Assembly: GCA_036172245.1 (NCBI GenBank) | Contig: JAYWIR010000094.1 | Location: forward strand, 186,001-250,000 | Direction: 5' to 3' | Source of the DNA: Raillietiella orientalis | Taxonomy: Eukaryota | Length of the DNA: 64,000 nucleotides | Shown: positions 1-47,640 of the stretch, one piece after another | How the letters are laid out: the number at the start of each line of letters is the position of its first letter | How positions within the stretch are numbered: position 1 is the first letter of the stretch | The notes under the pieces: model-generated | Told to the model about the DNA's origin: nothing | Databases searched by the model: none | Seen by the model: only the letters and a program-made list of their open reading frames with translations | Made by a program: the position numbers and the translations under genes

Positions 1-2377
1 ATGCAACAACAGCAACGTCGACTCTTTCCACTTAAGGGGCAGGATCCTGGATTCCGGAAGAAGCGAGGGCCACTTCAGCACATCCATAGGGATGGTCAGC
101 AGCTCGCCCCATCTTCTTAGTCCTCGCGGCTGGACGCTCGGGGTCGTGGCGTCGGCCAGTTCTCCTGTTGTCCAGCCGCTAATCAAATTCTCGCGTCCCA
201 GGATGCAGCAGGAGACTTGTCACCTTGGCGTCAGGCTGCTGTGAAGTGCCCTATTTAGGAAGGACAGCGCCGTAGCTAGGCAGGTCGTCTCTGCCCACGT
301 GCATCTTGCTGGACTCTCCAGGAGATTCCGCAGCGTGCAGCGGACGTAGGGGCTGCATCGGAGACGATTCCACGTCTCGTGGCTCCTCTGGTTAACCGCT
401 GCCCACGTTCCAATATTCTCCTCCAGCCAGGCGGGGGAGTTGGAGGGGCAGCAAACCATCCAGCTGTTCTTCTTGGCCAATGTTGCCATGCGCTTGAGCA
501 GTAGGCCGCACCTTCGCATCTTCCGGCCACGGCTCAGAAGAAAAGACGCGATTCCATCGCACCGGGACACACGGCTGGCCAGGAGGTGGGCCGGAGTGCA
601 CCAAAGGGTGCTCCACATCTTCGCTGCGATGGCAAGGGTTAGCTATCGCAGCTGCTTCTCCACGCGCTCCAGCGTCAGGAGGCCAAGACCGCGGTCCCGA
701 CGCGGAGCGCACAAGTTCTTCAGAGGGACTCGGGGCCTCCCCTCGCCCCAAAGGGCGATACGGAAGAGGTCCTTTGTCCTCTTTTTCGATTCAACGGTGG
801 GGGGGCAAACAAAAAGCAAGGAACGGAGAATGGTAGCCGCAAAGGCGTTCCAAACCGCGACCCGTTCCGGCAAGTGAAACTTGCCTTCCAGGAACGGGCC
901 GATCGCCGTCTCGACTTTTTGGAGGCAGCTAAACCACGCTTCCGCAGGGAAGTAGTCCCCCAACGGCACACCAAGGTACTTGAAGCACCTCGCCGTGGGG
1001 ATCCCCAGACGGACCCAGTCCTGCTGCCCTGCCCACTCCGCACCTATAGGCACAACCGACGACTTCGCCCTGTTAACCTGCAGTCCGGTCCCGCGGCTGA
1101 GCAGATCGAAGAAGTCTCCGACCGCCTTCGCCGGGGTGGACATTGGCAACAAGACCAGAAGATCGTCGGCGTACGCTGCTACGGCGGGCGTGCCGGGGCA
1201 CGAGCTCGGCAAGGGGGCCAAAGTCACCCTGTACGCTCTCAGCACCAACTCAATGTAGGTGCTAAAGAGCAGGGGGCTGAGGCTATCGCCCTGCCTTATG
1301 CCCCACCGCACCGGCACGCCATACACCTTCTGTCCACTGAAACAGACGGTAATCATCGTATTCCGCCAGCAAGAGCGCACGTAGGAAATCAGGGAGGGTG
1401 GGAAGCCCATGCGACCCAGGAGATCCAAGAGGAGTTCCTGGTCTACACAGTCGAACGCCTTGTGGAAATCAACTGAGAGCGCTAGGGCCCCCTTCCCCGC
1501 CCGGGGTTTCCTTCATAGCCCGGGTTGCGGCCTCAACGTGGGGTTGCCGACTGTTCATATCCCTTTCTTTTATCATCTCAGCAGGTACACCCATGTGCCT
1601 GCGAAGAAGAGGTTGGCATCCATCCTTCGCCCGGGAACAGCATAAGTCTGCTCCGGGCTAATTACGGATTCTGCCACCTGCCCCAGACGCGAAACCCATA
1701 GTCCTGCTCTCAACTTGGCGTCTGTATTCACGATCGTGATTGGACGCCAGTTCTTCAAATTCCTGAGGTCTCCCCCTTTCGTGAGGAGCCTCACTCTGGG
1801 TGACCGAAACTAGGCGGGAACATCGCCTTCGTCTCGGATCAGCCTGATCAACTTAAGCAGCAGGGATGCCAGCTCTACCGCGAAGCTCTTAAAGACCTCC
1901 GCGGGAAAGCCGTCTTCCCCTGGAGCTTTACGCCTCTTGAGCCTTTTGATACCGGCGAGAATTTCGACGGTGGTAAAAGGCTCGTCGAGGCTTTCCATCT
2001 CCTCCTCTTCTATTGTCAAGGCGCCATCGGGAAGCAAGCGCCGAGAGGTGTTTCGATCCGGGGGCTCCCTGGGGTAAAGGGAGGAATAAAAACTCCGCAC
2101 AAGATGCCGTGCCGACGCCGGGGAAGAACATTCCCGGCCCTGGTCGTCCAGCAATCTGGCCGACCCCTATTGCTAGGCTTGGCGTTCGCCCTCGGCGCGG
2201 TACTTGGCCAGGCAACGAACATTAAGAGTTCCTTCGTACCTACGAGCAAGTAAATAGGCCCGATGGTTGCGAGCACTCTCGCCGAATCCGGGGGGCAGGC
2301 GATCCAGGGGGAACTGCTCACAGAACTCGTAAAACCGATTCCTTAAAGAGGTCCCAGTCCTGGAGATTGCGGAGCGT
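1..2377 (-). mobile_element. Element A: non-LTR retrotransposon ORF2 (linker, RT, C-terminal region), degenerate; runs off the left edge and is cut at 2377 by element B
   Basis: Minus-strand frames give KAPGEDG, WRPITIVNTDAKL, GIRQGDSLSPLLF, AYADDLL, KYLGVP and GLGLL, with internal stops and frameshifts. Confidence 0.93.
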
Positions 2378-2495
2378 CGAGCGGACGTGTCTTTTCGTTG
2401 CTCCTGAGTTTCATTTCCGTTGGTGCTTGTGCGTGGTGTGGGTGGAGGATTAGGCAGCAATACCTGATACAACTACCGGAGAGGATCCGGGGGCG

Positions 2496-4101
2496 ATGAC
2501 GTCATTGCCCAAGGAGGAGATGGAGGTGGGGGCTCCCGCGTCAGTGGTGGTTTCCGCCAGCATGAATGCGCCCCCGGCCCTACCCAGGGCTTGGAACGCC
2601 GTGGCTGCGGCACCAACGCCAGCGGCTATAGCGGAAATGCGCGCTTACCTGGAGAAGGGGTATAACCCACCCCTTCTATATAGGTTAGGCGGTTTATATA
2701 ATCCCGAGAACGCGCGCGCCTTTTCGCAGGCGATGCGCGTTCTCGGTGTACAAAAAGAGGAGCTTCTGGCTATGTCCGTCAGAAGCAAGGGTCAATTTGT
2801 GGGAATTATCTGCAAGGAGGCAACTCTTGCGCATAGACTTTTGCAAACTGCCGTAATTATGGGCACCTGGAGGCTTCTCCCCATTACTGAAGAGCGGTCG
2901 GTGATGATTCACCTGACCGGTATCACGTTCCGGATGACGAAGGAGGCCGTCCGGGACGAATTAGAAAAATTCCGAACAGTGCACGCGCTGTGGGGAAAAC
3001 CTACACCGTTTGTTGATTACGACGGGGTGCTTGGCGGCCTGGGTGCAGCGCGAGTGACGGTTCGCGAGATGTGAGTTTCCCCACAAACTCACCGTCAACG
3101 GTGAATCCGTTGACGTGTGGTACGTGGGGAAACACAAGTTTTGCGGCTGCTGCAGCAGATTTGGTCACCTTAAAATGAGGTGTCCGATCGTGCAGTGCCA
3201 GCAATGCAAAGAAGCGGGGCACACCCGTCTGGTGTGATCCCAAAACACAGTCCGCGTCGTGTCCGCGAAAAACGCGAAAAAGCGCGCGGCAAAAAAAAGA
3301 AAGAAGCTGGCAGCTCGTGCTGCTGCTAAGGAGGTCACCTCCGCTACCAAGGCGAAGGCCAGCCCCGAGACTTCGGCGGAAAACGCCGAAAAGGTCGAGG
3401 GCGAGGGTCAAGAGCCAGGGTGGCAGAAGGTCGACCTTAAGAAAACCTCCCATAAGAAGGGAAAGAACGTGGCGAAACGGAGTGAAACCGCTCTGCGCCG
3501 CGAAAAAATTAAAAGCTGCTGCGTCGTTGTAGAGCGGATTCCCGCCATCGACGGATGCGGTGCTAAAGAACTCGCTGCTGCCCCTGCTCAACCCTCCGTT
3601 GACAAAGTCAACAAGGAGGGGAGCGAGGCGGCGGCGTCCGTCATCGAGCCCACGCTCGATGACGTCGCCTTCGAGCGTGCCGCGGAGGAGCTGGCTGCCT
3701 CGTTGCAGCCGGTTGCCCCCAAGGCTGGCAAGAAGGCCGTCAGGCGTCCGGCTTTTCCTCAGGAGTCGGTCACTTCCGACTCCGAGGTGAAGGCCTGAAA
3801 CACAGCATCCATCTCCGCGGCACCCCGCAAAAAGGCAGTACGAAAGTCCACAATGCCCCGGAAGATCGTCTAGCCCGACGAAGGGGAAGAGATGGCTTCT
3901 GGTAGCGAGGGTGCTATGAGCGTGGGAAACTCCCGGGACCCGTCGCCCAGGAGAATTCCACGCTCGGACACGGAGGGGATGGTAAGGATGGAGGCCGACA
4001 AGGTAATCCAGGCTCCTGAGGTGGCCTCCGTTCTCGTACCGATGGACCTTTCCTACACCTGCCCCGCGGCAGGTGTCGCGACGCCACTTTGCCAGCCATA
4101 A
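2496..4101 (+). pseudogene. B ORF1 (zinc-knuckle RNA-binding protein), disrupted
   Basis: MTSLPKEEMEVG...; knuckles CGCCSRFGHLKMRC and CQQCKEAGHTRLV* near 3140-3237; stops at 3072-3074 and 3796-3798. Confidence 0.85.
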
Positions 4102-7100
4102 TGCCGGGAATCGCCTCTCGTTGTCGTCTTCTGATCGCCTGTTGGAACGCGAACGGGCTAAACGACGACGGCAAGGGGCGTGACGTGGCCGCTACCCTGG
4201 CATCCTTCGACCTGGTGCTGCTGCAGGAGATCCACGTGATCTCCGCAGATCAAGCCCGGGAAATCGAACGGATCTCGTGTGGGCGGCTGTTGTTACGTTG
4301 CGGCACCGCGAAATCAAGCGGTGTCGCCTTCCTGCTTCGGCCAGCAATCGAGACCGCAATAAAGGACGTTCGGTCTGATGACGCAGGTCGCGTCGGTCAG
4401 CTGACTCTCAGCTGGTCCGACTCTATCGACCTGGTCGTCACCAACCTATACGCTCCTAGCGGAAACGCCGCGTTGAGGGCGAAGGCAAGAAGGGAATTCC
4501 ACCTTGCCCTGAGACGCGATTGGCTGACCGATGCAGGAGTTCGCAAAGCGCACCTGATCGCAGGTGATTTCAACCTGCGCCTGCTTTCAGGTGCGCCGGA
4601 TACACTGAATGACCGCGTCAACGAGTTGTGCGCAGAAACGAACACGCGCAACTTGTTGGCCGGGAACACGGCCATGGAAAGCAGCATCGATCACGTGTAC
4701 CTTGATCAGCACCTATGCTCTCGGGTTGGCAGGCGCGGCAAGGTACCATCCGAGCTGTCGGACCATGGTCGGATCATGTTCGAAGTGCGTCCGCGAGACA
4801 AGGGCGCCCACTCGTCCGCGTGGCATCTGCCAGGGGACTGGCTGAAGTTTCCCGACGCGGCGAAGCACCTCCGCGCGTTTATTAGGAGCTTCAGGATGCA
4901 GACACTTCAGGACTGGGACCGCTCCAAGCGGTCGGTTCAGGTGTTCTGCGACCATTTCCCCCTGCATCGCCTACATGCGGGATTTGGGAAGGGGCCGCGT
5001 AACAAAAGGTGCTATCTAAAGGCCCGACGTTACGCAAGAACCCCCGACATGCGCAGGTTAGCAGAGTACCGAGCGGGAGCCGAGAGGCAAGCCTGGCAAT
5101 CCGGATCGGCCAGCTTGCTGGACGACCAGGGCCGGGAGCACTCGGTTCCCGCTCAGAAACGCGGGATAGTAAGAAAATTTTACTCCTCCCTGTACGCCAG
5201 GGCGCCTCCGGAGCGAGACGTCTCACGACTTCTGCTTCCGGAAGGTGCTCCAGCGATCGGGGAGGAGGAGAAAAGAAGCCTCGACAAGCCTTTCACGATG
5301 GGCGAGATCATCTCCGCCATCCTAAAGCTCAAGAGGCGGAAGGCTCCAGGGGAGCACGGCCTGCCTGCGGAGTTTTATCAAACTTTTGCAGCAGAGCTTA
5401 CTCCCCTGGTACATCAGCTCACCTTGCTGATCCGTGAAACATGTGACGTTCCAACCTCGTTTCGTTCAGCAAAGGTGCGGCTCCTTTCTAAGGGAGGAGA
5501 CCTTAGGAGCATAAACAACTTCCGTCCTATCACAATAGTGAATTCGGACGCCAAGTTGCTTGCCAAACTGTGGGCAGAGCGCCTGGGACGGTTCGCCAAC
5601 ATCTTCATAAGCTCGAAACAGACATATGCTGTTCCCGGGCGAAGTATGGAGGCGAACCTGTTCCACGCTTCCACATGGATAGAGCTCCAACAAGGAAGAA
5701 GCATAATAAGCAACCGGAATTCCGGTGCGTCCGTCGGTGGGAGACGGGATGGTTGGGAGGGGAGAGGAGCCCTCGCGGTCGCAGTCGATATGCATAAAGC
5801 ATTCGATTGCGTCGACCAGAATCTCCTTTTGGAGCTTCGGGATTGCTTGGGCTTCCCGGCCTCTTTGCTGGTCTACCTGCGCTCCAGCTGGCGCGACGCG
5901 CTTATTAATGTTTTTTTTAGTGGATGCACCGTGTACGGCGTACCGGTGCGACGCGGCATACGGAAGAAAGACAGCCTCAGCCCCTTGCTCTTCAGCGCCT
6001 ATTTCGAATTGGTGCTGAGAGCGTACAGGGAGACTCTGGCACACCTGCCGTGCGATTGTCCCGGTACGCCTGCGGTTTCGGCGTACGCGGACGACCTTCT
6101 GCTGCTGCTGCTTATGTCCACCCCGGTCGCGGCGGTCGAGGAGTTCTTCGACCTGCTGAGTCGGGAAACAGGACTGACGGTGAACAGGGCGAAGTCGTCC
6201 GTAATGTCAGTCGGAGCGGCGTGGGCAGTGCAGCAGGACTGGGTCCGTTTGGGGATCCCCACGGTGAGGTACTTCAAGTACCTTGGTGTGCCGTTGGGGG
6301 ACTACTCCCCTGCGGAAGCTTGTCCGGCTGCCTTCAGAAGGCTCAGGCGGCGATCGGCCCTTTCCAGGACGGCAGGTTCTACCTGCAGAAACGGGCCACG
6401 GCGTGGAACGCGCTTGCGACCCCCCTCCTTCGCCCATTGCTTCTTGTTTGCCCACCCTCAGCGGAGTCAAAGAAGAGGACGAAGGACTTCCTGAGGATCG
6501 CCCTTTTGGGCAGAGGGAGGCCCCTAGTCCGTCTTTCGGACTTGTGCGCTTCTCGTCGGGATGGTGGTCTGGGCCTCCTGACGTTGGAGCGGCTGGAGTT
6601 ACAGCTCCAGTTCCGAGTTGTTGCCTTTATGGCAGAAAATTGGTGCACCCCTTGGTGCCTCCCTGCACGTGTCCTCGTCGAGCGGGCCACCGGCAATGCT
6701 GGACTCTTGTCTTACTTTGCACTCCGAAGCCCCATCTGCCACTGAGGACTTCAACTTCGGAGGGGGGCCAAGCTCGTGAAGAACAACTCGGCGCGGATCC
6801 TCGTACGCCCGCGAACGGTCCTGCCTGGTTGCAGGAAACCGTCCGCACGTGGGCGATGATTCAGGAGCAGAGCCCGCAACACGAGCGAATAGCTCTGTTC
6901 GGGCCGCATGCCCACCACACGCTCCGAGAAATCATCGAGAATCCCCGAAGGAGAGCGTGGGCACAAAGAACCTCCCTTGCTGCGGTACTGCCTACCCTAC
7001 GGGAACATCTGGGCATCGACGTCGCGGCACAATGGGAGGTTACTGTCAAGATCGCCAGCAGGGCAAAGAAGATCGGGGATGGGAGAACGGGTCAGCTCAC

Positions 7101-7245
7101 CAACGCTGCGACCCCGAGGACCACCCCAAATGGACTGTTGCGCTTGGGAGAGCTACTGGATGTTCCAGAGGAACATCTCGAGTGGCCCCCGGTGCTCATG
7201 GACTCGCGCACCCTCTTCATGAAGTGGCAACAGTCGGCACTGCTT
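4101..7245 (+). pseudogene. B ORF2 (AP endonuclease + reverse transcriptase), frameshifted near 6320 and truncated
   Basis: WNANGL, LQEIH, NLYAP, GDFN, IDHVY, SDH (APE); HKAFD, AYADD, KYLG (RT); 801-aa open stretch. Confidence 0.93.
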
Positions 7246-7493
7246 TAACACACGGATGCGCCGGGGCGTTTATTTCTTTAATAAAAAAAAATAAACAAGC
7301 AAGTGTAGGGCTATCTCCCCTACAGTGTTCAGAACATGTTCTTCTGAACTCGTCGAGTGGGCAGCACGCAGGCTCCCAAGGTCGACTCGGCAGCGGAGTG
7401 GGAAGGGACAAATAGAAAAAAACAAAAAGAAAACACTATTTACAAAAGCAGGGAGGGGTTGGGGAAGGGATCACGTTCCGCTGGAGACGTCCT

Positions 7494-10400
7494 CTACATC
7501 CTTTGCAGGATGCCGGCAAGTTCAAACTGCATGTGTCCCAGATGGGTCCATCTGGCTGCCGTCCTCAGGAAGCGCAGTACGTAGCACAAGATGTCCCTAT
7601 CGTTCGGTTTAGCAGTGGCGGTGCTCCAAGCCGCTACAATCCCTGGTAGGCAGCAGAGGGCTGCAAGGGCTGCGGCAGGCGAAAGGGCGTCGCGCACGAA
7701 GAGGCGCTTTAAAACGTCTCTGAAAGCGTGCAAGGGTGCACCAACGGCTGTTGCAAAGCGCAACCACAGGGGCCGGAGGGCAACACAGTCAACGAGCAGG
7801 TGCGGGAGAGTTTCTCGTTCCCCGCACCTGACACAGTTTGGGTCCACAACCCCCCTCGTCCAATGAGAGCGGCGGGCGTTGCTTTGGAGTCCCCAGTGCA
7901 ACACCAGGAACGCCGACTCCTGCCACTTTAGGGGGAGGGCCCGAGTATTCCTCAGCACTGGGGGCCACTCGAGTTCATCCCGCGGGATGCACAGCAGCTC
8001 GCCCCAGCGCAACAGTCCTCTCGGTGGGGAACTTGGGATCGCGGCATCAGCAAGCTGACCCGTGGTCCAACCACCTTGTTCTTTCTCAGTGTCCCTGATC
8101 GTATACCGGACCTCCCACATGGCCGGCTGGCTACTGCCCAGATGTTCCTAGAGGTGGGACAGAGCTGTGGCAAGGGAGGTCCTCTCAGCCCACGCACTCA
8201 AGGCGGGCTGCACGATGATGTCCTGCAGCGAGCGGCTCTTATGATAGGAGTGCAGCAGTCGCTGCCGCAACTCCGGGCTCGCTTCCTCGATCTGGGCCCA
8301 CGTGCGAAGGCTTTCCTGCAACCAGGAAGTGCCGTTCGCGGGCCGGCAGGAGATCCAGGTGTTCTTCCTGGTCAGCTTCGCCACTCGCCGAAGAGCCAGT
8401 CCGCAGTGGAACAGGTACCGGCGTTTGCGGCGCGCTAGGAAGGTAGACAGTCCCGCGCAGCCGCCGACTCGCTGAACCAGGCATCGTGCAGGCTCGCACC
8501 AGCTGGCGCTCCACAACTTCGCCACTAGGGCGATTGTTCGGAACTGCAGCTGCAGTTCGAGGCGCTTCAGCGTGAGGAGGCCAAGGCCCCCATCGCGACG
8601 AGGGGCGCACAAGTCCTTCCAAGGCGCGCGGGCCTTCCTCTGCCCCAGATGGCGATTCTGAGGAGGTCCTTTGTACGTGTTCTCACACCACGGGGTGGGG
8701 GAGAAACAAAAAGCAAAAAGCGAAACAGGGGGGCCACGAAAGTGTTCCACAGCACGGCCCGTTCCGGCAAGAACTTGCCATCCAGGAACGGGCCGATCGC
8801 TCTCTCGGCCTTTTGGAGGCAGCAAGACCATTGTTCCGCTGGGGAGTAGTCCCCCAACGGCACACCGAGGTACTTAAGGTACCGTACCGTGGGGATCCCC
8901 AAGCGAGACCAGTCTAGCTGCCCTGCCCACGAGGAACCGACTGCAACAACGGACGACTTTGCTCTGTTCACCTTCAGTCCTGTCCCGCGACGCAGCAGCT
9001 CGAAAAAGTTTTCGACCGCCGACGCCGGGGTGGACATGGGGAGCAGCAGCAGAAGATCGTCCGCATACGCAGCCAAGGCCGGTGTACCTGGGCACACGCG
9101 CGGCAGGCGACCAAGAGTCTCCCAGAATGCCCTCAGCACCAACTCGAAGTAGGTGCTGAAGAGCAAGGTGCTCAAGCTATCACCCTGCCGTATCTTGCGG
9201 CGCACCGGCACACCGAACACGTTCCTTCCCCTGAAAGAAATGTTGGTCAGCGCGTCGCGCCAGCAAGAGCGCAGAAAGGCCAATAAGAAGGCCGGGAAGC
9301 CCAAGCGCTCCAGAAGCTCCAGCAGGAGCTCCTGGTCGACACTGTCGAATGCTTTCCGCAAATCGACAGCGACCGCGAGGGCCCCTTCTCTCTCCCGACT
9401 ATCCCGCGAACCACCAGCGGACGTCCCGCAAATCGGGCTGCCGACCTTGTTCCATCCATTCATTCTGGTTCTTTGAAGTTCGAACCAGGTGTTCGCGAAG
9501 AGCAGGTTGGCGTCCATGCTTCGCCCGGGAACAGCGTAGGTCTGCTCCGGGCTGATGACGCTTTCCGCCACCCGCCCCATTCGCTCCGACCATAGCTTCG
9601 CAACCAGCTTGGCGTCCGCGTTCAGTACGGTAATCGGACGCCAATTGCTGAGGTTCCGTAAGTCTCCTCCTTTCGGTAGGAGACGCATACGTGCCGATCG
9701 GAAGGAGGCGGGAACGTCTCCTGTCTCCCGGATCAGCAGCGTTAGCCGCTGCACCAGAGGAGCCAGCTCCGCCGCGAAGCACTGAAAAAACTCCGCGGGC
9801 AGGCCGTCTTCCCCCGGTGACTTCCGCCTTTTGAGCTTCCCGATTGCGGTGATGATTTCACCCATCGTGAAAGGCTCGTCCAGGCGTACTCTCTCTTCTT
9901 CCCCGATCGCCGGGGCACCGTCCGGAAGCAAAAATTGGGAAAATTCCCGGTCCGGAGGCACCCTGGTGTACAGGGAAGAATAATAGCCGTGCACTAGGCT
10001 ACTCACCTCTGCCGGGGCCGAGTGCTCTTGGCCTTCGTCGTCCAGCAGGCTGGGCGACCCCGATTGCCAGGCCTGCCGCTCGGCCCCGGCTTTAAATTCC
10101 GCCAGTCTTCGGACGTCTGGTGTTCGGGAGTAACGACGGGCCTGCAGGTAAGCCCTATCGTTCCGAACACCTTCTCCAAATCCTTTCGGGAGACGGTTAA
10201 TGGGGAACTGTTGGCAGAACTCTCGCACCGAGACTTTCAAATCGTCCCAGTCGTCGAGCGTCTGCAGGCTGAAACCTCGCAAGAACGCGCGGAGGTGTTC
10301 CGCTGCGCCTGGCTTGGTCAGCCAGTCCCCCGGTAGACGCCACGCCTGCGCGGGGGGCCCCCTGCGCGCGGGCGAATGACGAGTTCCACACGGGAGTGGT

Positions 10401-11055
10401 CGGAGACTGCGGACTGTATCTTACCTCGCCTGCCCACGCGACAGCGCAGGTGATCGTCGAGGAAGACGTGGTCCACGCTCCGTTCCATCACGGTATCCCC
10501 GGCTAACAAGTTGTATGCGTGCACCGCAGCGCACATCTCGTTAACCGGGGTGGCCTCTGTCCTCGCCGCACCTGATAGCAGGCGAATATTAAAATCTCCG
10601 GCTATCAGGTGCGCCGTGCGCGCGCCTGCCTCCGACAGCCAGTCGCGCTTGAACGCACGGAAAAACGCCGTCCGTGCCACGCGCGCGTGACCGCCGCTCG
10701 GCGCGTACACGTTCGTGACGACGAGTTTGATGGAGTCGGACCACCTGAAGGTGATTTGCCCGACCCGACCTGCCTCATCGAAACGAACTTTCCGCACCGC
10801 GCGTTGTAGGGCAGGCTCCAGAAGGAAAGCGACCCCGCGCGTACGGCGGTGGCCGCATCGCCACATAAGCTGACCACCTGCTATCCGTTCGATCTTTTGC
10901 GCATGTTCTGCGGAAATCTCATGGATCTCCTGCAGCAGCACGAGGTCGAAGGCTTGCAAGGTGGCAGCTATGTCTCGTCTCCTGCCGTCATCGCAAAGCC
11001 CGTTGACGTTCCAGCTGGCGATGCGTATTTGACGGCAGGTGGCGAGTCCCGGCAT
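7494..11055 (-). pseudogene. C ORF2 (APE-RT-zinc finger), with frameshifts near 10340 and 8630
   Basis: ORFs 10318-11055 (APE), 8567-10282 (RT), 8148-8831 and 7494-8120 (CVRCGERETLPHLLVDC). Confidence 0.92.
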
Positions 11056-12251: not shown

Positions 12252-12343
12252 CGGACACCGACGATGTGCACGCACAAATCATTTAAGAAGAAAAAACACT
12301 CGCTTTGCCACGCAGGCGGAGCGCAGGAAAAGCACGTCCGCTC

Positions 12344-17909: not shown

Positions 17910-17934
17910 CGGCGCAGGTTTGCCGCAAGTTTGC

Positions 17935-20915: not shown

Positions 20916-20974
20916 AGCACGCCCTCATGGAGGAGGGCCTACAGGTGCCCTACGTCTGCAACGTACACCTGTTT

Positions 20975-28117: not shown

Positions 28118-28277
28118 AACTCTGCTGCTTCAGTTGATGAAGCTGATCCGAGACGAATGCGATGTTCCCGCCTCGTTTTGGTCAGCCAGAGTGAGGCTCC
28201 TACCGAAAGGGGAAGACTTCAGTTATTCAAGGAACTGGCGTGCGATCACGATTGTGAATACGGACGCCAAGTTGCTA
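28118..28277 (+). mobile_element. RT N-terminal fragment cut at DAKLL
   Basis: LIRDECDVPASFWSARVRLLPKG...NWRAITIVNTDAKLL. Confidence 0.85.
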
Positions 28278-28372
28278 GTTGCCACCCGGTCACGCCGTGG
28301 CGTTTATTAGAAATTCTCTATAATTCTTAGTACGAGGCCCCACTACGGCCAACTCAAAAGGACCTGCCGGGT
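28278..28372 (-). mobile_element. Element L: 3' terminal fragment only
   Basis: AATAAACGCCACGGCGTGACCGGGTGGCAAC. Confidence 0.8.
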
Positions 28373-33424: not shown

Positions 33425-33431
33425 TGCTCCA

Positions 33432-36400: not shown

Positions 36401-38990
36401 CTGTCGGCCATCGGAAAGCTCAAGAGCCGAAAGGCACCAGTAGAGGACGGCCTGCCCGCGGAGTTCTATCAAACTTTCGCTGCTGAGCTTACCCCCCTTT
36501 TACAGCAACTCACCTTGCTGATACGCGAAACAGGTGACGTTCCCGCCTCGTTTCGTTCGGCAAAGGTGCGGCTCCTCCCTAAGGGAGGAGATCTGAGGAG
36601 CATGAACACCTGGCGTCCCATCACAATAGTGAATGCGGACGCCAAGTTGATAGCCAAGATGTGAGCAGAGCGTCTGCGACGGGTTGCCAGCATCTTTATC
36701 AGCCCGGAACAGACATATGCTGTTCCCAAGCGAAGCATGGAGGCGAACCTGTTCCTCGCTTCCACCTGGCTAGAGCTCCAACATGAAAGGAGCTTGGTGC
36801 GCAGCCGGAATTCCGGTGCGTGCGCCGGCATGGGGTGGGATGGTCGGGTGGGGTAGGGAGCCCTTGCGGTCGCAATCGACTTGCGGAAAGCATTCGATTG
36901 CGTCGACCAGAATCTCCTTCTGGAGCTTCTGGAACGCTTGGGCTTCCCGGCCTCATTAGTGGCCTATCTACGCTCCTGCTGGCGCGACGCGCTCATCAAT
37001 GTTACTTTCAGCGGGCAGACCGTTCACGGCGTGCTAAAGCGGCGTGGAATCCGGCAGGGAGACAGCCTGAGCCCCTTGCTCTTCAGTACCTACTTTGAAT
37101 TGGTACTGAGAGCGTACAGGGGAACTCTGGCGCACCTGCCGCACGACTGTGCCGATCCGCCGGCCGTTTCAGCATATGCGGACGACCTTCTGCTGCTGCT
37201 CCCTATGTCCACCCTGGCTGCGGCGGTCGAGGAGTTCTTCGACCTGCTGCATCCGGGAACCGGACTTACGGTGAACAGGGCGAAGTCGTCCGTGATGCCA
37301 GTTGGTGCGGTGTGGGCAGGGCAGCAGGACTGGGTCCGTTTGGGAATCCCTACGGTGAGGTACTTCAAGTACCTTGGTGTGCCGTTGAGGGACTACTCCC
37401 CTGCGGAAGCGTGGTCCAACTGCCTTCAAAAAGTAGAGACGGCGATCGGCCCGTTCCGAGGCGGCAGGTTTTTCCTGCCTGAACGGGCCGCGGTTTGGAA
37501 CACGTTCTCGGCTCCTCTCCTAAGCCCCCTGCTTTTTGTTTGCCCCAACACAGAGAGAATAAAAAAGCAAACAAAGACCTCCTCCGTATCGCCCTTTGGG
37601 GCAACGGGAGGGCCCGAGTCCGCTTAAAGGACTTGTGCGCTCCTCGTCGGGATGGTGGTCTGGGCCTCCTGACGCTGGAGCGGCTGGAGCTTCAGCTCCA
37701 GTTCCGCTTGTCGGCACTCGTTCCAGAGTTGTGGTGCACCTGTTGGTGCGTCCCTGCACGTCTCCTTCTCCAGCAACCCACCGGCAAGACGGGACTGACG
37801 TCGTTTCTTGCACTCCGTCGCCTTGTGAACCGATACGAACTCCAGCTACGGAGGGTGGCTGCGCTGTATCGGAAAAACCCAGGATTGCTCACCTGTCGCC
37901 CGTTGAACGGTAGTGCCTGGTTGCAGGAAACCGTTCGAACGTGGGGACAGTTCGGCATGCAACGCTCCCAACAGGAACAAAGGTTCCTGTTTGGGGGTTA
38001 CAGAAGTTGCACGCATCGCGAGATCCTAAAGGATCCAAAGAAGAGAGCGTGGGCAGGAAGAACCCCCCTCGCTGCTGCGCTACCCTCCCTGATGGAAGAT
38101 CTGGACAGCGATGTTGCGGCGAAGTGGGTGGTTACAGTAACAATTTCCGGAAAGGAGAAGAAGATAGGAGAGTGGAAGACGGGCCAGTTAACAGACGCTG
38201 CAACCCCAAGTACGCCTCCCAATGGACTTCTGCGCTGGGGCGCGCTGCTCGATGTTCCCATTGAACATTTGAAGTGGCCCCCGGTGCTCATGAACACTTC
38301 CGCCCTCCCCTTAAAATAGCAGGAGTCGACTCTCCTTTTGCAGCACTGGGGACTACCCTGCAACGCCCGCCGACACCACTGGACCTGAGGAGCGGTGGAC
38401 CACAATTGCGTCAGGTGTGGGGATAGGGAGTCCGTCCCCCACCTGCTAGTGGATTGTGTTGCCCTTTGGCCCCTTTGGTTTCGCTTTGCCGCGGCCATCG
38501 GAATCCCCTGCGGCAACCCCAGGGACGCACTGAAAGCCCTCTTCGTTGCCGACGCCCTTCGGCCAGCGGCCTCGTTAGCAGTTTTGTGCTGCCTGCGCGG
38601 GATCGTCACCGTTCGGAGCAAGGCTACGGAAGGACAACGCGATCAGGGTGCCATCCAGCCAGCCTTCCAGTTCCTTAGGAGGGCGTGTCGATGGCCCATC
38701 CTGGATCCAGAAATACAGAAGGAGCTTGCCGGCATCCTACAAAGGATGCAACGGCCCCACCAGCAACTGTGATCCCTTCCCTTACCCTCCCAACTTTTCT
38801 TTTCTTTCTTGTTTTGTTTTTTGTTTTTCCCCCTTCCCCCTGCTGCCGTAATGGACCGTACCGGTCTGCGAACCGGTGACCCGGCAGGCTCTGTGTTCCT
38901 TCGTGCGTGGCTGGAGCAATGGTCTAGCCACCGCACGTCTTTGTAAATGTTTATTTTACAATAAACGCCCCGGCGAAATCCGGGCGAAAA
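33432..38990 (+). mobile_element. Element P: full-length (~5.56 kb) but mutated copy; the best structural reference in the window
   Basis: GGGTGGACGTGTTTT start; ORF1 ~33519-35192; TAATG; ORF2 35192-38772 with stops and frameshifts; AATAAA-hairpin at 38960-38990; imperfect 14-bp direct repeat on both flanks. Confidence 0.95.
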
Positions 38991-41900
38991 TCGAACGCCT
39001 TGTGGAGAGCGACTGCGAGCGCAAGGGCCCCCTTCCCCGCCCGGGGGTCCCTTCCCAACAAGGCTGGCGGCCCCAATGTGGGGTTGCCGACTTTCCCTAT
39101 CCCTTTATTTTCTCTTCTCTGCAGGTGCACCCATGTGCTTGCGAAGAAGAGGTTGGCATCCATACTTCGCCCGGGAACAGCATAAGTCTGCTCCGGGCTG
39201 ATTACGGATTCTACCACCTGCCCCAGACGCGAAGCCCATAGCCCTGCTATTAACTTGGCGTCCGTATTTACGATCGTGATCGGACGCCAGTTCTTTAAAT
39301 CCCTGAGGTCTCCCCCTTTCGGAAGGAGCCTCACTCTGGCTGACAGAAACGAGGCGGGAACATCGCCTTCGTCTCGGATCAGCCTGTTCAACTCAAGCAG
39401 CAGGGGTGCCAGCTCTTCCGCGAAGCTCTGAAAGAACTTTGCGGGCAAGCCGTCTTCCCCAGGAGCTTTACACCTCTTGAGCCTTTCGATACCGGCGAGA
39501 ATTTCGCCGGTGGTAAAAGGCTCGTGGAGGCTTTCCATCTCCTCCTCCCCTATTGACGGGGCGCCATCCGGAAGCAAGCGCCGGAAAGGGTTTCAATCCG
39601 GGAGCTATCCGGCGTAAAGGGAGGTATAAAAACTCCGCACGAAATGCCGTACCGACGCCGGGGACGAACATTCCCGGCCCTGGTCGTCCAGCAAGCTGGC
39701 CGACCCGGATTGCCAGGCTTAGCGTTCGACCCAGGCGCGATACTCGGCCAGGCGACGGACATTAGGGGTTCCCTCGTACCTGCGAGCCCGTAAATAGGCC
39801 CTATGGTTGCGAGCACCCTCGCCGAATCCGGGGGGCAGGCGATCCAGGGGGAACTGCTCACAAAACTCTTGGACCGATTCCTTAAAAAGGTCCCAGCCCT
39901 GGAGATTGTGGAGCGTGACGCCTCTCAGGTATTCGCGAAGGTGTTCCTTTGCACCGGCAGACGCCAATCCCTGGATGGCGGTTTGCCAAACAGTCGCGCT
40001 TCAGGGATTCCAGCAACCTGGTACCCTAGCTGTATCCCCCCTTCTTGCTTGGAGCGTAAACGTTCGTGACGATCAGTTCGATCGAGTAGGACCAGCTGAG
40101 AATCAGCTGACCGATCCGACCGTCGTCATCGAAGCGCACGCCCTTCACGGCAGCGTCCAGAGCCGGCTTCACGAAGAAGGCGACCCCGCAGGTGTTGCCG
40201 AGGCCGCACCGGCAATACATACGACCCCCGCGATCGTCTCGATCTCCTGGGCGTCTGTCGCGGTGATCACGTGGATCTCCTGCAGCAGGGCCAAATGGAG
40301 CTCACGCAGGGTGTCGGCCGTATCTCGCCTGTTACCGTCGTCGCGCAGCCCGTTGACGTTCCAGCAGGCGGAGCGAATCCGACGGCGACTGGCGAGCCCA
40401 GGTGCTACTTCTGGGAAGAAGGCGATGCGGCGTCCGCAACCTGCTGAGGCGGGACGCTAGGTGGAATAGGAGGGTCAGGTGCTGAAAGCACTTAATCCCA
40501 CTCCTCTATAGGAAACTGTACGTCGAGCGGGTCACCCACAGGTGGGGTCGCGCCTACCTGTTCGCCCCCCTCCATGGGGGCGGGCTGTTCAGGCTCGGCG
40601 ACTGCAGGTAGGACTTCGCCCCCCTGCTCACACGCCTTCATGGGGTTGGCCGGCTCGACGGCTTCCGAGCGTAGGAGTTCCCCTCCGGGATTCCCACGCT
40701 ACCGCTAGCTTCCTGCTTCTCCTCCTCGCTGGTAAAGGGGAGGCGCCTCCTGGGTTTCTGGGACTTGCGTCCCGACTTCCTGGGGGGTGCCTCCGAGAAT
40801 GAGGATGCACTTCCGGCCCCCAGGTCCGACTCACCTGTGGGGGCCTTTTTCGCGGGAGCCGGCGTTCGCACGGCCTTGCGTGAGGGGTTCTCACGCTCCG
40901 CCAGCGTGGCCGCGAGCTCCTCCGCCGCCTTTGCGAACGCGGCGTCCTCGGTGTCGACCGGCGCGTCGCGCGGCTCACCCTCTGTTTGCACAGAGGGTTC
41001 GCCGTCGCGAACTTCGGGCGCGACGAAAACGGCGAGGGGAGGCTCGTCGCTCCGGGTGGCATCTTCGGGAACGACGATACGTTCCAGTGCCACCGTGCAC
41101 TCGCGTACGGTTTTCGAACGCGGCCAGGGTTTTTTCGCCTTACCTGCCGGCTTTTCTTTTTTCTCCTTCAAAGGAGCTTTTCTCTCTTTCCTGGCTGCTA
41201 CAAGTTGCCAGTCCTCTTCACCTTCCGCCTCTTGGGAAGGTTTATCCTCCGTCTTTTCTTTTGGAGGTTGAGGATCTGGCAGCTTCAGCCGGCTAGCGTC
41301 CGCCTTAGGTCTTGTGACCTCTAGTGCGGGTTTCCTCTGCGCCTTTTTTGCGGCAGGAGTAACCGGGGTGGAGCATTTTGGGCACACACGTCGAACGTGG
41401 CCCTTCTCCTTGCACATGTGGCATTGGATGTTAGGACACCTCTTGCGAAGGTGTCCTATGGTATCGCAGTAGCCGCAATACCGGGGCTTTCCCACGTACC
41501 AGAGGTCCACGCTCTCTTGCGCGACCTCCAGCTTGTGGGGAAGCCCACAGTTCTTACTCACGGTTACCCGCGCTGCAGCCTGGCCTCCGAAATGGCTATT
41601 AAAGTCTTCAAAGATTGTTGCCTTAGGCCACAACGCGTGCACCTCGCCGAACTTCTGTAGTTCTTGTGCTACCGCAGCGCGAGTCATACGGCTCGTTATT
41701 CCAGTTAAATGGACCAACATGGTGCGGTCCATCGTCACCGGCAAGATCTTCCGGCCGTCGACGTTCAACGGATTGGTGATTAGAGTCTGAGCCAACGTGA
41801 TCTTCTTGCACACCACCTCGACTCGCTGACCTCCGCTGAGAACGGACAAACCGTCCAGATCTTGTTCTCTTACTCCGGCGTTTTGCAGCACTTTCGAAAA

Positions 41901-42242
41901 CGCGCGTGCCGTTTTTCCGTCAATTAAGGGGCCTACCTCGTACATCAAGCGTGGCTTGTACCCAGCTGCTTGGTAGGCCGCCATCTCGGCCACGGTTTCC
42001 GCGCTCGGCGCGGCCACCATGGCGCTCCAGCTTTTCGCCTTGAACGGCTAGGGCGATTCCGGGGCGGACGCCCCTGATTCTGTAAACTGTGGGGGTGGGC
42101 AAGCCTCCCTCACCCCTACCTCCATCGTGGTGTCCTCAGACATTGCTTCCAACGGACACCAACGATGTTCCACAGTAAACAACACAAGAAAAAACCGCTA
42201 CCTGTCGACTCACTCGGAAGCGAAGAAAAAACACGTCCACTC
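38991..42242 (-). mobile_element. Element Q: 5' UTR, ORF1, internally deleted APE, and RT up to HKAFD
   Basis: GAGTGGACGTGTTTT start; 460-aa ORF1 stretch 40638-42020 (CGYCDTIGHLRKRC/CHMCKEKGHVRRVC); APE breaks off after NVYAPS near 40040. Confidence 0.92.
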
Positions 42243-42257
42243 GCCAAGGGCTTCTGC
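42243..42257 (+). repeat. Isolated 15-bp target-site remnant between tandem elements Q and R
   Basis: GCC AAG GGC TTC TGC resembles the host P-K-G-F-G codons. Confidence 0.75.
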
Positions 42258-45200
42258 GTTGTCACTCGGGTACGCCTGGGGCGTTTATTTGTAAACTCTA
42301 CATGCGTGGTACGAGGCCCCACCACGGCCGTAAACACGCGACCTGTCGGGACACCGGGACGCAGCCCGGTGTGGCACTCCCCGAAAGCGAAGGAGGATGG
42401 GGATAAGACAAAAAGAAAAATAAAAAGAAACAAACAAAAAGGAGTTGGAGGGAAGGGAAGGGATCACTGTTTGCTGTGGGGAGGGCCCATCCGTCGAACG
42501 AAGCCCTCGAGGTCAGTCTGCATATTCCCCAGTTGGAGCCATCCGGCAGCTCTTCGCAAGAAGCGTTGGACATGCGGGATGACATCCCTCGCCTGTGGAC
42601 CCACTCCTTCGTTGTTGGGTCGCTCCATGCCGCCACGATGCCACGGACGCAGCACAAGGCTGCGATGGCTGCGGCTGGCTGTAGTGCGTCCTTCACGAAG
42701 AGGAGCCGAAGAACGTCTCTGGGGGTGCTGCCCGTACAGAGCCCAAGGTTCGTCCCGAACCGTTCCCAAAGGGGTCGGAGGGCTGCACAATACACAATAA
42801 GGTAGGGAAGCGACTACCGCTCCCCGCAACTGGCACACGCAGGATCCACAGCTCCCCTCGTCCAGTGAAAGCGGCGCGCGTTGCAGGGTAAACCCCAATG
42901 CAACAACAGCAACGCCGACTCTTTCCACTTAAGGGGCAGGATCCTGGACTCCTTCATCACCGGGGGCCACTTCAGCTCATCCCTGGGGATGGCGAGCAGC
43001 TCGCCTTATCTTAATAATCCTCGCGGCTAGACGCTCGGGGTTGTGGCGTCGGCCAGTTCTCCTGTTGTCCAGCCGCTGATCAACTTCTTGCGTCCCTCGA
43101 TGCAGCAGGAGACTTGCCATCTTGGCGTCCGGCTGCTGTGAAGTGCCCTCCTCAGGAAGGGCAGCGCCGTAGCTAGGCAGGTCGTCTCTGCCCACGTGCA
43201 TCTTGCTCGACTCTCCAGGAGATTCCGCAGCGTGCAGCGGGCGATGCCACCCGGATACGCCGAGACGTTAATTAAAAACATTTCAACGGTCAATACAGAA
43301 CGTGGTACAAGGCCCCACTGACGGCCACGCAATACCGGAACTGCTGGAACACCGGGACGCAGCTCATTGTGGCTCTCCTCGGCAGTGGAGGGGGATGGGG
43401 GAAAAAACAAAAATAAAATAAAAGAGAATAACAAACCACAAAAAAAAAAAAAACAGTTTGGAGGGCCGGGAAGGGATCACAGTAAACTGCTGGGAGCTCT
43501 CATCCTTTGCAGCGGGCGTAGGGGCTGCATCCGAGAGGATTTCACGTTTTGTGGCTCCTCTGGTTAACCGCTGCCCACGTTCCAATATTCTCCTCCAGCC
43601 AAGCGGGGGAGTTGGCAAGGCAGCAAACCATCCAGCTGTTCTCCTTGGCCAATGTTGCCATGCGCCCGAGCTGTAGACCGCATCTTCGCATCTTCCGGCC
43701 ACGGCTCAGGAGAAAAGACGCGAGTCCATCGAACCGGGACACACGGCTGGCCCGGAGGCGTGCCGGAGTGCACCAAGGGGTGCTCCACATCTTCGCTGCG
43801 ATGGCGAGGGTTCGCCACCGCAGCTACTTCTCCACGCACTCCAGCGTCAGGAGGTCAAGACCGCCGTCCCGACGCGGAGCGCACAAGTCCTTCAGAGACA
43901 CTCGGGGCCTCCCCTTACCCCAAAGGGCGATACGGAGGAGGTCTTTCATCCTGTTCATCGATTCCACGGTGAAGGGGCACACAAAAAGCAAGGGGCGGAG
44001 GATGGGGGCGCGAAGGCGTTCCAAACCGCGGTCCGTTCCGGCAAGTGAAACTTGCCTCCGAGGAACGGGCCAATCGCCGTCTCCACTTTTCGGAGGCAGC
44101 TGGACCACGCTTCCGCAGGGGAGTAGTCCCCCAACGGCACACCTAGGTACTTGAAGCATTTCGCCGTGGGGATCTTCAGACAGACCCAGTCCTGCTGCCC
44201 TGCCCACGCTGCACCAACAGCCATCACGGACGACTTTGCCCTGTTCACCGTAAGCCCGGTGCCTCGATTCAGCAGGTCGAAGAACTTCTCGACCGCGGAC
44301 GCCGGGGTGGACATAGGGAGCAGTAGCAGAAAATCGTCCGCGTATGCCGAAACCGCAGGCGTACCAAGATAATCGCGCGGCAGGTGTGCCAGAGTCTCCC
44401 TGTACGCTCTCAGCACCAATTCGAAAAAGGCGGTTAAGAGCAGGTGGCTCAGGCTGTCTCCCTGCCGTATGCCGCGTCGCACCGGTACTCCGTGCACGGT
44501 TTGCCCTCTGAAAAGAACATTAATGAGCGCGTCGCGCCAGCTGGAGCGCAGGTAGGCCAACAAAGATGCCGGGAAGCCCAAGCGTTCCAGAAGCTCCAGT
44601 AGGAGATTCTGGTCGACGCTGTCAAATGCTTTACGCAAGTCGACAGCGACCGCAAGGGCTCCCTTCCTTACCCGACCGTTCCGTCTCCCGCCAACGGACG
44701 CACCGGAATTCCGGATGCTCAATAAGCCCCTTTTTTGTTGGAGCTTTAACCATGTGGAAGCGTGGAACAGGTTTGCCTCCATGCTCCGCCCGGGAACAGC
44801 ATAAGTCTGTTCCGGGCTGATGAAGATGTTGGCAACCCGTTCCAGACGCTCTACCCACATCTTGGCTATCAACTTGGCGTCCGCATTCACTATTGTGATG
44901 GGACGCCAGTTGTTCATGCTCCTTAGGTCTCCTCCCTTCGGGAGGAGCCGCACCTTTGCTGAACGAAACGAGGTGGAAACGTCACCTGTTTCGTGGATCA
45001 GCAAAGTGAGATGATGTACCAGAGGGGTAAGCTCTGTCGCGAAAGTTTGGTAAAACTTCGCGAGCAGGCCGTCCTCCCCTGAAGCCTTCCGCCTCTTGAG
45101 CTTTCCGATGGCCGAGAGAATCTCGTCCATCGTGAAATGCTCGTCGAGGCTTCTTTTCTCCTCCTCCCCGATCGCTGGAGCACCTTCCGGAAACAGAAGT

Positions 45201-45448
45201 CGTGAGACGTCTCGCTTCGGAGGCGCCCTGGCGTACAACGAGGAGTAAAATTTCTTCACAATTTCGCGCTTCTGAGCAAGAGCCGAGTGCTCCCGGCCCT
45301 GGTCGTCCAGCAAGCTAGCCGACTTGGATTGCCAGGCTTGCCTCTCGGCTCCCGCTCGATACTCTGCTAACCTCCGCATGTCGGGGGTTCTCGCGTAACG
45401 TAGGGCCTGAAGATAGCACCTCTCGTTACGCGACCCATTCCCGAATCC
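42258..45448 (-). mobile_element. Element R: ORF2 from the GFG site to the 3' terminus; chimeric; contains S
   Basis: GFGNGSRNERCYL...AYADDF...; terminus AATAAACGCCCCAGGCGTACCCGAGTGACAAC. Confidence 0.93.
43244..43507 (-). mobile_element. Element S: 264-bp 5'-truncated D-type copy with a perfect 11-bp TSD
   Basis: TGCAGCGGGCG at 43233-43243 and 43508-43518; the insert matches D ~15040-15300. Confidence 0.92.
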
Positions 45449-45458
45449 CTCTCCTCGA

Positions 45459-45825
45459 AAGCGGACGTGTTTTTCCGGCGCTACGCGAACGAGCAGCGGA
45501 AAGCGGTTTTTTTTTGGTTCAGTGTGTGCTTTTTCACATCGTTGGTGTCCGATGGCATCGCTGCCAGAGGACACCACGATGGAGGTAAGCGTGAGGGAGG
45601 GTAGCCTCCCCCCCACGGCCTACAGAATCAGGGGCATCCGCCCCGGAATCGCCCTCGTCGCCCAAGACGAGGAGGTGGAGCGCCAAGGTCGCCGCGCCGA
45701 GCGCGGAAACTTTGGCTGAGCAAGCGGCCTACAGGGCCTCCGGATATAAACCATCCCTGGTTTATAAGGTAGGAAACCTGTTCGACGGTCGCACCGCGCA
45801 TGCCTTTAGCAGGGCACTACAGGAA
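45459..45825 (+). mobile_element. Element T: 5' UTR and ORF1 start
   Basis: AAGCGGACGTGTTTTT; MASLPEDTTMEV; YRASGYKPSLVYKVG. Confidence 0.85.
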
Positions 45826-46350
45826 TTCCCCGGATCGTTCCATCGTCACCGGGTAAATCTTGCGGCTGTCTACCGTGAGTGGGTTACTTTGCAAACGGTG
45901 TGCCAAGGTGATGTCTTTGCACACTTCCTCGATGCGGTGACCCCCGCTGAGGGCGGAGAGGCCGTCAAGGACTTGTTCCAGTACATTCGCAGACTGCAGC
46001 GCCTTCGTGAAGGCACGTGCAGTATTGCCGTCCAATAATGGGCCTATCTTATAGACAAGCAAGGGCGTGTACCCTTCTAACCTTTAGACCGACTGTTCAG
46101 CCAAGGTTTCCGCGCAAGGCGAGGCTACCGTGGAGCTCCATGTCCTCGCCGTCGGAGAAGATGACTCCGTGTCGGATGCCTCCGTCAAAGTAGGCTGTGG
46201 GGATGAACTCACCTCCTTGATACCTACATCCATCGCGATGTCCTCAAGCATCGAAGCCACTGTACACCTTCGATGCGAAATCAAACACCACACAGGAAAA
46301 AAAACGCTTTCCGAACTCGTTAGCGGACCGACGGAGAAACACGTCCGCTC
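45826..46350 (-). mobile_element. Element U: 5' UTR and ORF1 start
   Basis: GAGCGGACGTGTTT at 46350; LVYKIGPLLDGNTARAF. Confidence 0.85.
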
Positions 46351-46860
46351 GCGGCAGGATCTGGGCAGCGGGTCCGCAACGAAAGGGCGTATTTGTATGC
46401 CCGTAATTACGTAAGGACCCCAACGTCCGTCGTCTGGCCGAATACCGCGTCGGGGGTGAGCGCGAAGTTTGGTAATCCAGGTCGGCCAGCTTGCTGGTCG
46501 ACCAGAGCCTGGAGCACTCGGCCCCGGCTAGAATACAACACCTCGTGAGATTTTATTCCTCCCTCTACACCAGGGCCTCCCCGGAGCGAGACGCCTCCCG
46601 GAGCTTGCTTCCGGATGATGCCTCAGTAATAGGAAAGGAGGAGAATTTAAGTCTCGACGAGGCTTTTACCACCGTCGAAATCCTCTCGGGTATCCAAAGG
46701 CTCAAGAGGCGTAAAGCTCCAAGGAAGGACGACTTGCCCGCAGAGTTCCTCCGGTGCTACGCGATAGTGTTGGCACCCCTGGTGCTTCAGTCGACATGAC
46801 TGATACGAGAGGAAGGCGGTGGGCAGCCAAACTAAACCAGAGGGGCAACGAAACGTGGAT
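46351..46860 (+). mobile_element. Element V: ORF2 fragment from the GFG-equivalent site, internally deleted
   Basis: AAGSGQRVRNERAYL...LKRRKAP; 46817-46860 encodes WAAKLNQRGNETW, homologous to WAAVNQRSHETW in A. Confidence 0.82.

Positions 46861-47640
<780 letters not shown>

Follow-up and report, generated by a model that had tools for sequence, protein, structure and literature searches.

Among the closest described counterparts of the locus analyzed here are the site-specific APE-type LINEs (R1 group; Tx1 group of the L1 clade). They share with it the combination of APE and RT domains and short target duplications, and they likewise insert again and again, in a fixed orientation, at a single position within a multicopy target. 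PMC3747384 describes the Tx group as target-specific, and the R1Bm endonuclease, which is described as cleaving both strands of its own site, is an example of a sequence-specific APE endonuclease. The targets at this locus, in contrast, are three sites in the ORF2 of related copies and not rRNA, snRNA or microsatellite DNA; site use is preferential, with 8 junction sites elsewhere, and the comparison is one of features. Zepp and the Zepp-like L1 clusters of green algae are, as described in PMC3446292 and PMC8226300, also GC-rich, mutually nested LINE copies forming a local cluster in DNA of lower GC content. Table 3 of PMC3747384 gives (A)n tails for Zepp and L1-1_CR, whereas the tails of the copies analyzed here are not poly(A), and most of them contain AATAAA. 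A single nested cluster on each chromosome, sited at the centromere, is a further feature of Zepp/ZeppL. For human TEs, Levy et al. 2010 (PMC2836564) report that most nested insertions hit particular positions within the TE they target, and they attribute the bias in orientation that L1 and Alu show when inserted into L1 and Alu to features of the target sequence. The human bias is reported as about 2:1 in favour of sense, with an A/T-rich nick motif, whereas here all insertions at three GC-rich coding sites are antisense. Dual-strand piRNA/siRNA clusters, which are defined by the small RNAs they yield, likewise hold fragmented TE copies on both strands; the present cluster resembles them in this DNA arrangement. 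In the literature we searched, no LINE was described as inserting antisense at fixed positions within its own ORF2; the two original Zepp papers, Higashiyama 1997 and Yamamoto 2003, may bear on this point.

A pile of LINE copies spans ~47 kb of the window, the whole 64-kb stretch of DNA that was analyzed. Judged from its sequence, the cluster from position 1 to ~46860 is composed of diverged copies of one group of APE and RT containing non-LTR retrotransposons, with pairwise identities of ~65-90% (Table 1). Copy A carries an 824-aa open stretch (4020-6494) with both the APE and RT domains in a single frame (PF03372, 4e-15; PF00078, 1e-14); the RT domain was found in five more frames and PF03372 additionally in 10318-11088. 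An ORF2 with an apurinic-like endonuclease and an RT domain, a target-site duplication and frequent 5' truncation (R1 and the other tail-only copies, K and L) are the features of APE-type LINEs. Of the features expected in the L1 clade/Tx1 group, zf-RVT, the C-terminal zinc-binding motif of ORF2, scored 23.3 bits (E=1e-4), below the cut-off of 27.5, and every score for CCHC knuckles, expected in ORF1, was below cut-off. In the sense direction the elements begin with approximately RGCGGACGTGTnTTT and end in a conserved ~32-nt tail, AATAAACGYCCCGGCG...CCGGGTGGCAAC, without poly(A). All 11 tails finish in the conserved sequence of the ...CCGGGTGGCAAC type or in no more than 4-6 A, and 9 of them have AATAAA ~25 nt upstream of the element end. 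A predicted tail hairpin was dropped, having just 5 pairs and no compensatory changes. A protein search returned just 13 homologues, all weak and mostly without a name, the closest named matches being 24-28% identical; matches in the protein atlas were to generic APE/RT clusters only. A metagenome scan yielded 80 loci, all of them distant LINEs of ~21-30% identity (the best ~26-30%), and no close relatives. There were no Rfam matches in the window and no Pfam matches among 44 flank ORFs, and a weak Sclerostin match was dropped because no homologues were found. The tail at 46861 is supplied by a second, more divergent LINE family.

Table 1. Parts of the LINE cluster and orientation of the junctions listed in the earlier note. 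Element coordinates (nt) are in the numbering of copy B, the reference; HS321, HS515 and HS594 are recurrent insertion sites in ORF2.
Feature	Position	Strand	Description
W	1..2377	-	LINE copy, nt ~2549-4914; continues past left window edge; contains the 5' junction of A, 78-97 nt upstream of HS321
A	2378..7245	+	5' end intact; cut by C's tail at nt ~4911
C	7246..12343	-	full-length, 5098 nt; 3' junction in A (one-off), 5' junction in E at HS321
E	12344..15300	+	downstream part, HS321 to 3' tail; tail adjoins H1 at HS321
H1	15301..17909	-	upstream part, 5' end to HS321; 5' end adjoins H2, sense
H2	17910..18493	-	fragment of ORF2 C-terminal region, nt ~4294-4858
Y1	18731..19257	+	fragment of ORF1 3' part; host of F1's 5' junction, sense
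F1	19258..20946	+	5' end to ORF1/ORF2 spacer
G	20947..23112	+	nt ~479 to HS321; probably a 5'-truncated sense insertion in F1
I	23113..25477	-	3' tail back to HS515; tail adjoins G at HS321
J	25478..27994	+	5' end (adjoining I at HS515) to HS321
K	27995..28112	-	tail fragment, 118 nt, in HS321 of J
J'	28113..28277	+	ORF2 fragment, nt ~3060-3223, stops at HS515
L	28278..28365	-	tail fragment, ~90 nt, in HS515 of J'
M	28366..30253	+	nt ~3820 to 3' tail; tail adjoins N, sense
N	30254..31221	+	nt 2224-3223, stops at HS515
O	31222..33431	-	3' tail (adjoining N at HS515) back to HS594
B	33432..38990	+	full-length, 5559 nt; between O and P at HS594
P	38991..42242	-	5' end to HS594
remnant	42243..42257	+	15-16-nt host piece, bounded by the 5' end of P and the tail of Q
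Q	42258..43243	-	3' tail to nt ~4575; resumes as R2
R1	43244..43507	-	264-nt 5'-truncated sense insertion
R2	43508..45458	-	Q continued, back to HS321
S	45459..45825	+	5' end (adjoining R2 at HS321) to nt ~350
T	45826..46350	-	nt ~520 back to 5' end, which adjoins U at HS321
U	46351..46860	+	HS321 to nt ~3105; cut at 46861 by tail of second LINE family
3' junctions, antisense	7245, 15301, 23112, 27994, 28277, 31221, 38990, 42257, 46860		
3' junctions, sense	30254, 43243		
5' junctions, antisense	2378, 12343, 25478, 33432, 42242, 45459, 46350		
5' junctions, sense	17909, 19258		

The earlier note had listed 20 junctions between copies and claimed a strong antisense bias among them, even at sites used once. 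All 20 junctions are real: each is the 5' or 3' terminus of a LINE, with the conserved terminal sequence, adjoining another copy. The host peptides TLRN (2378), QSALL (7245) and ETW (46860) also held when the host bases were translated by eye. Orientation was called from tblastn and from nhmmer mapping against two of the full-length copies; at 42242 and 42257, where the host is only the remnant 42243-42257, we infer it. Antisense junctions number 16 and sense junctions 4, and 20946/20947 is a further sense junction beyond those listed. The excess in numbers is therefore as stated, but the junctions are not independent, since 13 of the 16 antisense junctions fall at just three sites in ORF2. 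The two-sided p=0.012 for 16/20 is valid only for independent junctions, which these are not; counted per insertion event, 13/18 are antisense (p=0.096). The extension of the bias to one-off sites was not confirmed: all four listed sense junctions are one-off, and outside the three hot spots there are 3 antisense against 4 sense junctions, or 3 against 5 with 20946/20947 (3/8 non-hot-spot sites antisense, p=0.73). Three antisense sites out of three give p=0.25 alone. All counts come from a single cluster in one 64-kb window. Where sites recur in nested clusters, orientation counts of junctions are pseudo-replicated, and a silencing role should be proposed only after tests made for each site and each event.

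The clustering of the junctions at recurrent sites is itself pronounced. There are 21 pairs of host positions within 25 nt of each other, whereas 20,000 random placements gave 1.57 such pairs on average and never more than 10. The three sites lie at codons ~321, ~515 and ~594 of copy A and account for 6, 5 and 2 junctions, respectively, all antisense; in terms of events, 11 of 11 are antisense. HS321 falls in the linker that joins the endonuclease domain to the RT domain (...GGATTTGG^), HS515 within the N-x-D-A-K-L motif of the RT (...GCCAAGTTGnTA^) and HS594 within its K-A-F-D motif (...CAAGGCRTTCGA^). Two of the three targeted positions are thus in core RT motifs. Ranked by conservation of 12-nt windows, HS515 is in the top 1.2%, HS594 at 25% and HS321 at 66%, so that the idea of the hot spots as conservation peaks holds for HS515 only. 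The three share no short motif that would explain their choice, loose motifs being present on both strands, and microhomology between primer and tail is at chance level (mean longest match 2.91 vs 2.75 +/- 0.26, p=0.31). As in site-specific LINEs, insertion returns to the same nucleotide position with its orientation unchanged, but it is not confined to these targets: of the 8 junction sites elsewhere, 5 are sense.

The ends of the interrupted hosts overlap by 10-20 nt, as expected of staggered nicks. At HS321 three upstream parts stop at alignment columns 151-152 and three downstream parts begin at 133-137; at HS515 two upstream parts stop at column 95 and one downstream part begins at 83. 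At HS594 the upstream part extends to column 106, the downstream part begins at 86, and CACAAGGCRTTC is repeated on the two sides of B with 12/14 bases. None of the insertions at HS321 has both flanks from one demonstrable host, and the flanks of C (element nt 4911 and 2638) cannot come from one host; the evidence that these overlaps give for duplication at conserved motifs is therefore indirect. The remnant at 42243 begins CGCCAAG, like the downstream parts at HS515, and may be read as the middle copy of a target duplication after two insertions at one site. Ordinary insertion behaviour is seen as well. R1 is flanked by a perfect 10-11-bp target duplication, GCAGCGGGCG, and a contig of the DNA run X1 (0.13 share of words) links 43232 to 43508 with R1 absent; K, L and R1 are 5'-truncated.

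Could the recurrent junctions go back to a few ancestral ones that were multiplied by old segmental duplication or by recombination? The copies are mosaic, a sign of active recombination or gene conversion. Q/R2 resembles A (84-91%) as far as element nt ~3900 and W (82-95%) beyond it, the similarity of W to O/P changes at HS594, and S/T with its neighbouring pieces is in inverted arrangement. However, in 7 pairs of same-site junctions the flanks are just 67-80% identical on both sides, no closer than any random pair of copies. The nick positions at a shared site vary by 1-4 nt, tail variants differ among elements inserted at one site, and a complete element terminus stands at every junction, which neither duplication nor crossover predicts. 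We consider this origin very improbable.

Our preferred reading, to which we give a probability of roughly 65%, is that the antisense excess is the product of recurrent sites used in one orientation and not of a general rule of nesting. New copies would enter resident copies through target-primed reverse transcription, most of them at the three preferred sites in ORF2. At each hot spot the coding strand of the host would be nicked first and serve as primer; priming from the coding strand would always place the new copy antisense to its host, and with orientation fixed at all three sites the antisense excess becomes a property of the sites. The suggestion of strand-specific nicking in the earlier note comes close to this anatomy. 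Each insertion would supply fresh targets on the opposite strand, and repeated rounds could build a zig-zag, strand-balanced pile. The sites were probably chosen by the element's own endonuclease or by another DNA-recognising part of its proteins, and missing host halves were presumably lost in deletions linked to insertion or occurring later. The position of B allows two explanations. P is 78-91% identical to W and O only 49-71%, the affinity changing right at HS594, so that B either sits in a recombinant host or links two different ones.

A general preference for antisense insertion, or better survival of antisense insertions, would also give 16/20 junctions and 13/18 events. In the survival version, sense-nested copies form direct repeats with their host and are lost by recombination or selected against. 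Deletions clearly happen, as many halves of hosts are absent, and contigs of run X1 contain an extra antisense joint of tail to host near 35355, which comparison with 35345-35365 places in the endonuclease region, outside the hot spots. Yet outside the hot spots sense junctions are at least as frequent as antisense ones (5 against 3), R1 is a sense insertion that has kept its perfect duplication, and the 13 junctions at three positions account fully for the excess. Loss of direct repeats, which the earlier note had offered as another cause, is thus not needed. We regard a general preference or survival effect as unlikely.

The strand-alternating cluster might instead, as the earlier note proposed, be a source of dsRNA or small RNA that silences the family; in an animal it would resemble a dual-strand piRNA cluster. 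The cluster comprises 24,196 bp on the plus and 22,427 bp on the minus strand, so that ORF2 sequence is present nearly equally on both, and the strand switches at 19 of the 25 boundaries within it. Past the 3' tails of B, C and O/P, the first base is already antisense ORF2. The AATAAA present in 9/11 tails nevertheless argues against routine read-through, if the organism uses this signal. The copies are 65-90% identical, only 569 start positions in 46.8 kb have an exact inverted match of at least 21 nt within the cluster, and the orientation pattern does not require any silencing function. The support for a silencing locus goes no further than the presence of ORF2 sequence on both strands, and on the basis of these sequence features it appears rather improbable.

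A broader form of the site-based reading is that a LINE lineage has evolved homing into defined positions of the RT gene of its relatives, always priming on the coding strand and so producing a self-limiting, strand-alternating island. We put this forward tentatively, at less than even odds. If true, the family would feed on its own dead copies, bridging insertions (C and perhaps B) would delete the intervening DNA, and RNA of both sense and antisense polarity would be readily available from the island. Should the site rule hold genome-wide, the safe haven of this LINE would be the coding sequence of its own family, and nested LINE islands could arise without a host function; the three sites would also provide defined DNA targets for testing how APE-type endonucleases read sequence.

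Some pairings of parts were also considered. W and H1 are ruled out as halves of one host, since both contain the same ~97 nt, and in this overlap their identity is only roughly two-thirds (aligned rows compared by eye). J, J' and M are only candidate parts of a single host with target deletions, since the copies are mosaic. The S/T boundary is an internal-to-internal junction. A palindromic duplication relating R2/S to U/T is unlikely, as the arms are only ~65-70% identical; their closest relatives also differ, R2 being nearest to A (about 84%) and U to W (about 75%).

The GC-rich part of the window (52-62% GC from position 1 to ~46860, 56-61% in most 2-kb bins, and 38-49% in the remaining 17 kb) consists almost entirely of copies of one non-LTR retrotransposon group. 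Apurinic-type endonuclease and reverse transcriptase (RT) domains (PF03372 and PF00078) lie in one 824-aa frame at 4020-6494, and the RT domain occurs in five further frames of the cluster; matches to zf-RVT at the ORF2 C-terminus and to CCHC knuckles in ORF1 are weak. The copies are ~65-90% identical to each other and none in the cluster has a complete ORF2. Protein relatives are distant (24-28% identity, except for one 72% fragment), a metagenome search found no close loci, and no recognisable gene was found in the 17 kb beyond the cluster. Read in the sense direction, the elements begin with approximately RGCGGACGTGTnTTT and end in a conserved tail of ~32 nt (AATAAACGYCCCGGCG...CCGGGTGGCAAC) that lacks poly(A); AATAAA is found in 9 of 11 tails, ~25 nt before the element end. 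Zepp and Zepp-like elements are reported to form GC-rich clusters of nested LINEs (PMC3446292, PMC8226300), but Zepp tails are given as (A)n (PMC3747384), unlike those of the window. The 237 bp between H2 and Y1 (18494-18730) match neither of the full-length LINE reference copies. In copy B, 41 nt of the 5' region are duplicated in tandem (33546-33624), and copy M carries a T-rich microsatellite in its 3' part (30036-30105).

All 20 junction coordinates listed in the earlier note are element termini adjoining another copy, and their orientations (inserted copy relative to host) agree with tblastn maps and with nhmmer maps built on full-length copies B (33432-38990) and C (7246-12343): 16 are antisense and 4 sense. 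For 42242 and 42257 the host sequence is a remnant of only 15-16 nt, and the element tail at 46861 is from a second LINE family. Broken and unbroken copies were aligned around every recurrent breakpoint, and 13 of the 16 antisense junctions fall at three sites in ORF2 (table below). When each junction site is represented by a single host position (19 in all), 21 pairs are no more than 25 nt apart; 20,000 random placements gave 1.57 such pairs on average and at most 10.

Recurrent insertion sites, other junction sites and pieces of the second LINE family
Feature	Position in element	Orientation	Window coordinates
HS321	codon ~321 of copy A, element nt ~2640	antisense	15301, 23112, 27994, 12343, 45459, 46350
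HS515	element nt ~3222, RT motif N-x-D-A-K-L	antisense	28277, 31221, 25478, 42242, 42257
HS594	element nt ~3460, RT motif K-A-F-D	antisense	33432, 38990
Sites outside hot spots		antisense	2378, 7245, 46860
Sites outside hot spots		sense	17909, 19258, 30254, 43243, 20946/20947
Second LINE family (more divergent, AT-richer, similar tail)			46861-47964; 48504-49277; 50552-51498; 62147-62692; 63072-63990

At HS321 the upstream host parts stop after GGATTTGG or a variant of it, H1 at alignment column 152 and both G and J at column 151; the downstream parts E, R2 and U begin at columns 133, 133 and 137. The upstream parts J' and N stop at an identical column of HS515, after GCCAAGTTGCTA; the downstream part of copy I begins 12-13 nt earlier, with CGCCAAGTTGC, and the remnant at 42243 begins likewise with CGCCAAG. 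At HS594, P stops after CACAAGGCGTTCGA and O begins ...CACAAGGCATTC. Upstream ends thus overlap downstream starts by a steady 10-20 nt, the pattern expected from staggered nicks and target duplications.

The junction count (16 of 20 antisense if treated as independent, two-sided p=0.012) overstates the statistical weight of the bias through pseudo-replication. Counted as insertion events, 13 of 18 are antisense (p=0.096); hot-spot events are antisense in 11 of 11 cases (p=0.001), which as sites are 3 of 3 (p=0.25). The bias had been said to hold even at one-off sites, but away from the hot spots only 3 of 8 sites are antisense (p=0.73), so that the excess is a property of the three sites. Among the sense sites is 20946/20947, where copy G begins at element nt ~479 immediately after F1, presumably as a 5'-truncated insertion.

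Same-site junctions could also be very old duplications of single events. In seven same-site pairs, however, host flanks are 67-75% and insert flanks 68-80% identical, not above the identity of any two copies (an eighth pair, with only 7 bases of host sequence, is uninformative); nick positions vary by 1-4 nt and the tail variants differ. These comparisons favour separate insertion events, with old duplication the less probable source. The copies are mosaics, and recombinant elements do exist in the family: Q/R2 (42258-45458) changes from A-like to W-like at about element nt 3900, and R2 matches A at 84-91% identity before that point and W at 82-95% after it.

The antisense excess is most likely caused by site-determined target-primed insertion. 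By analogy with sequence-specific APE LINEs, the likeliest agent of recognition would be the element's endonuclease or another element protein. Loose motifs common to the three sites are present on both strands of full-length copies, and similarity of primer end to tail is at chance overall (2.91 vs 2.75 +/- 0.26, p=0.31); HS515 and the cDNA start have GTTGC in common, and of the three sites only HS515 lies in sequence of exceptional conservation (among the top 1.2% of 12-nt windows). Hot spots and orientation bias of nested human L1 and Alu are attributed to target sequence in one study (PMC2836564). The literature covered contained no account of LINEs that insert in antisense at fixed positions of their own ORF2.

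The earlier note had proposed a possible dsRNA/small-RNA silencing locus fed by read-through antisense to ORF2. Any long cluster transcript would indeed carry both ORF2 senses, but the AATAAA signals, if used by the organism, argue against routine read-through. Exact inverted matches of at least 21 nt have only 569 start positions in 46.8 kb. The strands are balanced (24,196 bp + and 22,427 bp -, with switches at 19 of 25 boundaries between pieces), a balance that the insertion rule accounts for by itself and that needs no function.

Several joints do not fit a simple nest. The other half is missing for most hosts in the cluster. Full-length C abuts A (element nt ~4911) with its tail and E (HS321) with its 5' end, positions that cannot belong to one host; such flanks, without a target duplication, suggest that the insertion bridged two copies and removed the intervening DNA. 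The flanks of B diverge in affinity exactly at HS594, P being 78-91% identical to W and O only 49-71%, and deletion-like internal-to-internal joints occur at 28112/28113, ~28365, ~45825 and 18493. Presumably some insertions spanned cut sites of two copies, or the missing partners were deleted later. More ordinary is R1 (43244-43507), a tail-only sense copy of 264 nt flanked by a 10-11-bp duplication without mismatch. In the DNA sequencing run X1, one contig connects 43232 to 43508, with 11 letters fitting either side, and is a related copy without this insertion. K and L are also tail-only (118 and ~90 nt). In contigs of X1 (31222-31227; near 35355) an O-like tail abuts, in antisense, endonuclease-region sequence of the B type at about element nt 1924, a junction absent from the window.

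Just outside the cluster, second-family pieces at 46861-~47587 (-) and 47586-47964 (+) stand head to head, the arrangement expected if a single break had been primed twice. Within these fragments lies an uninterrupted run of ~133 G (47139-47271, 96% matches).
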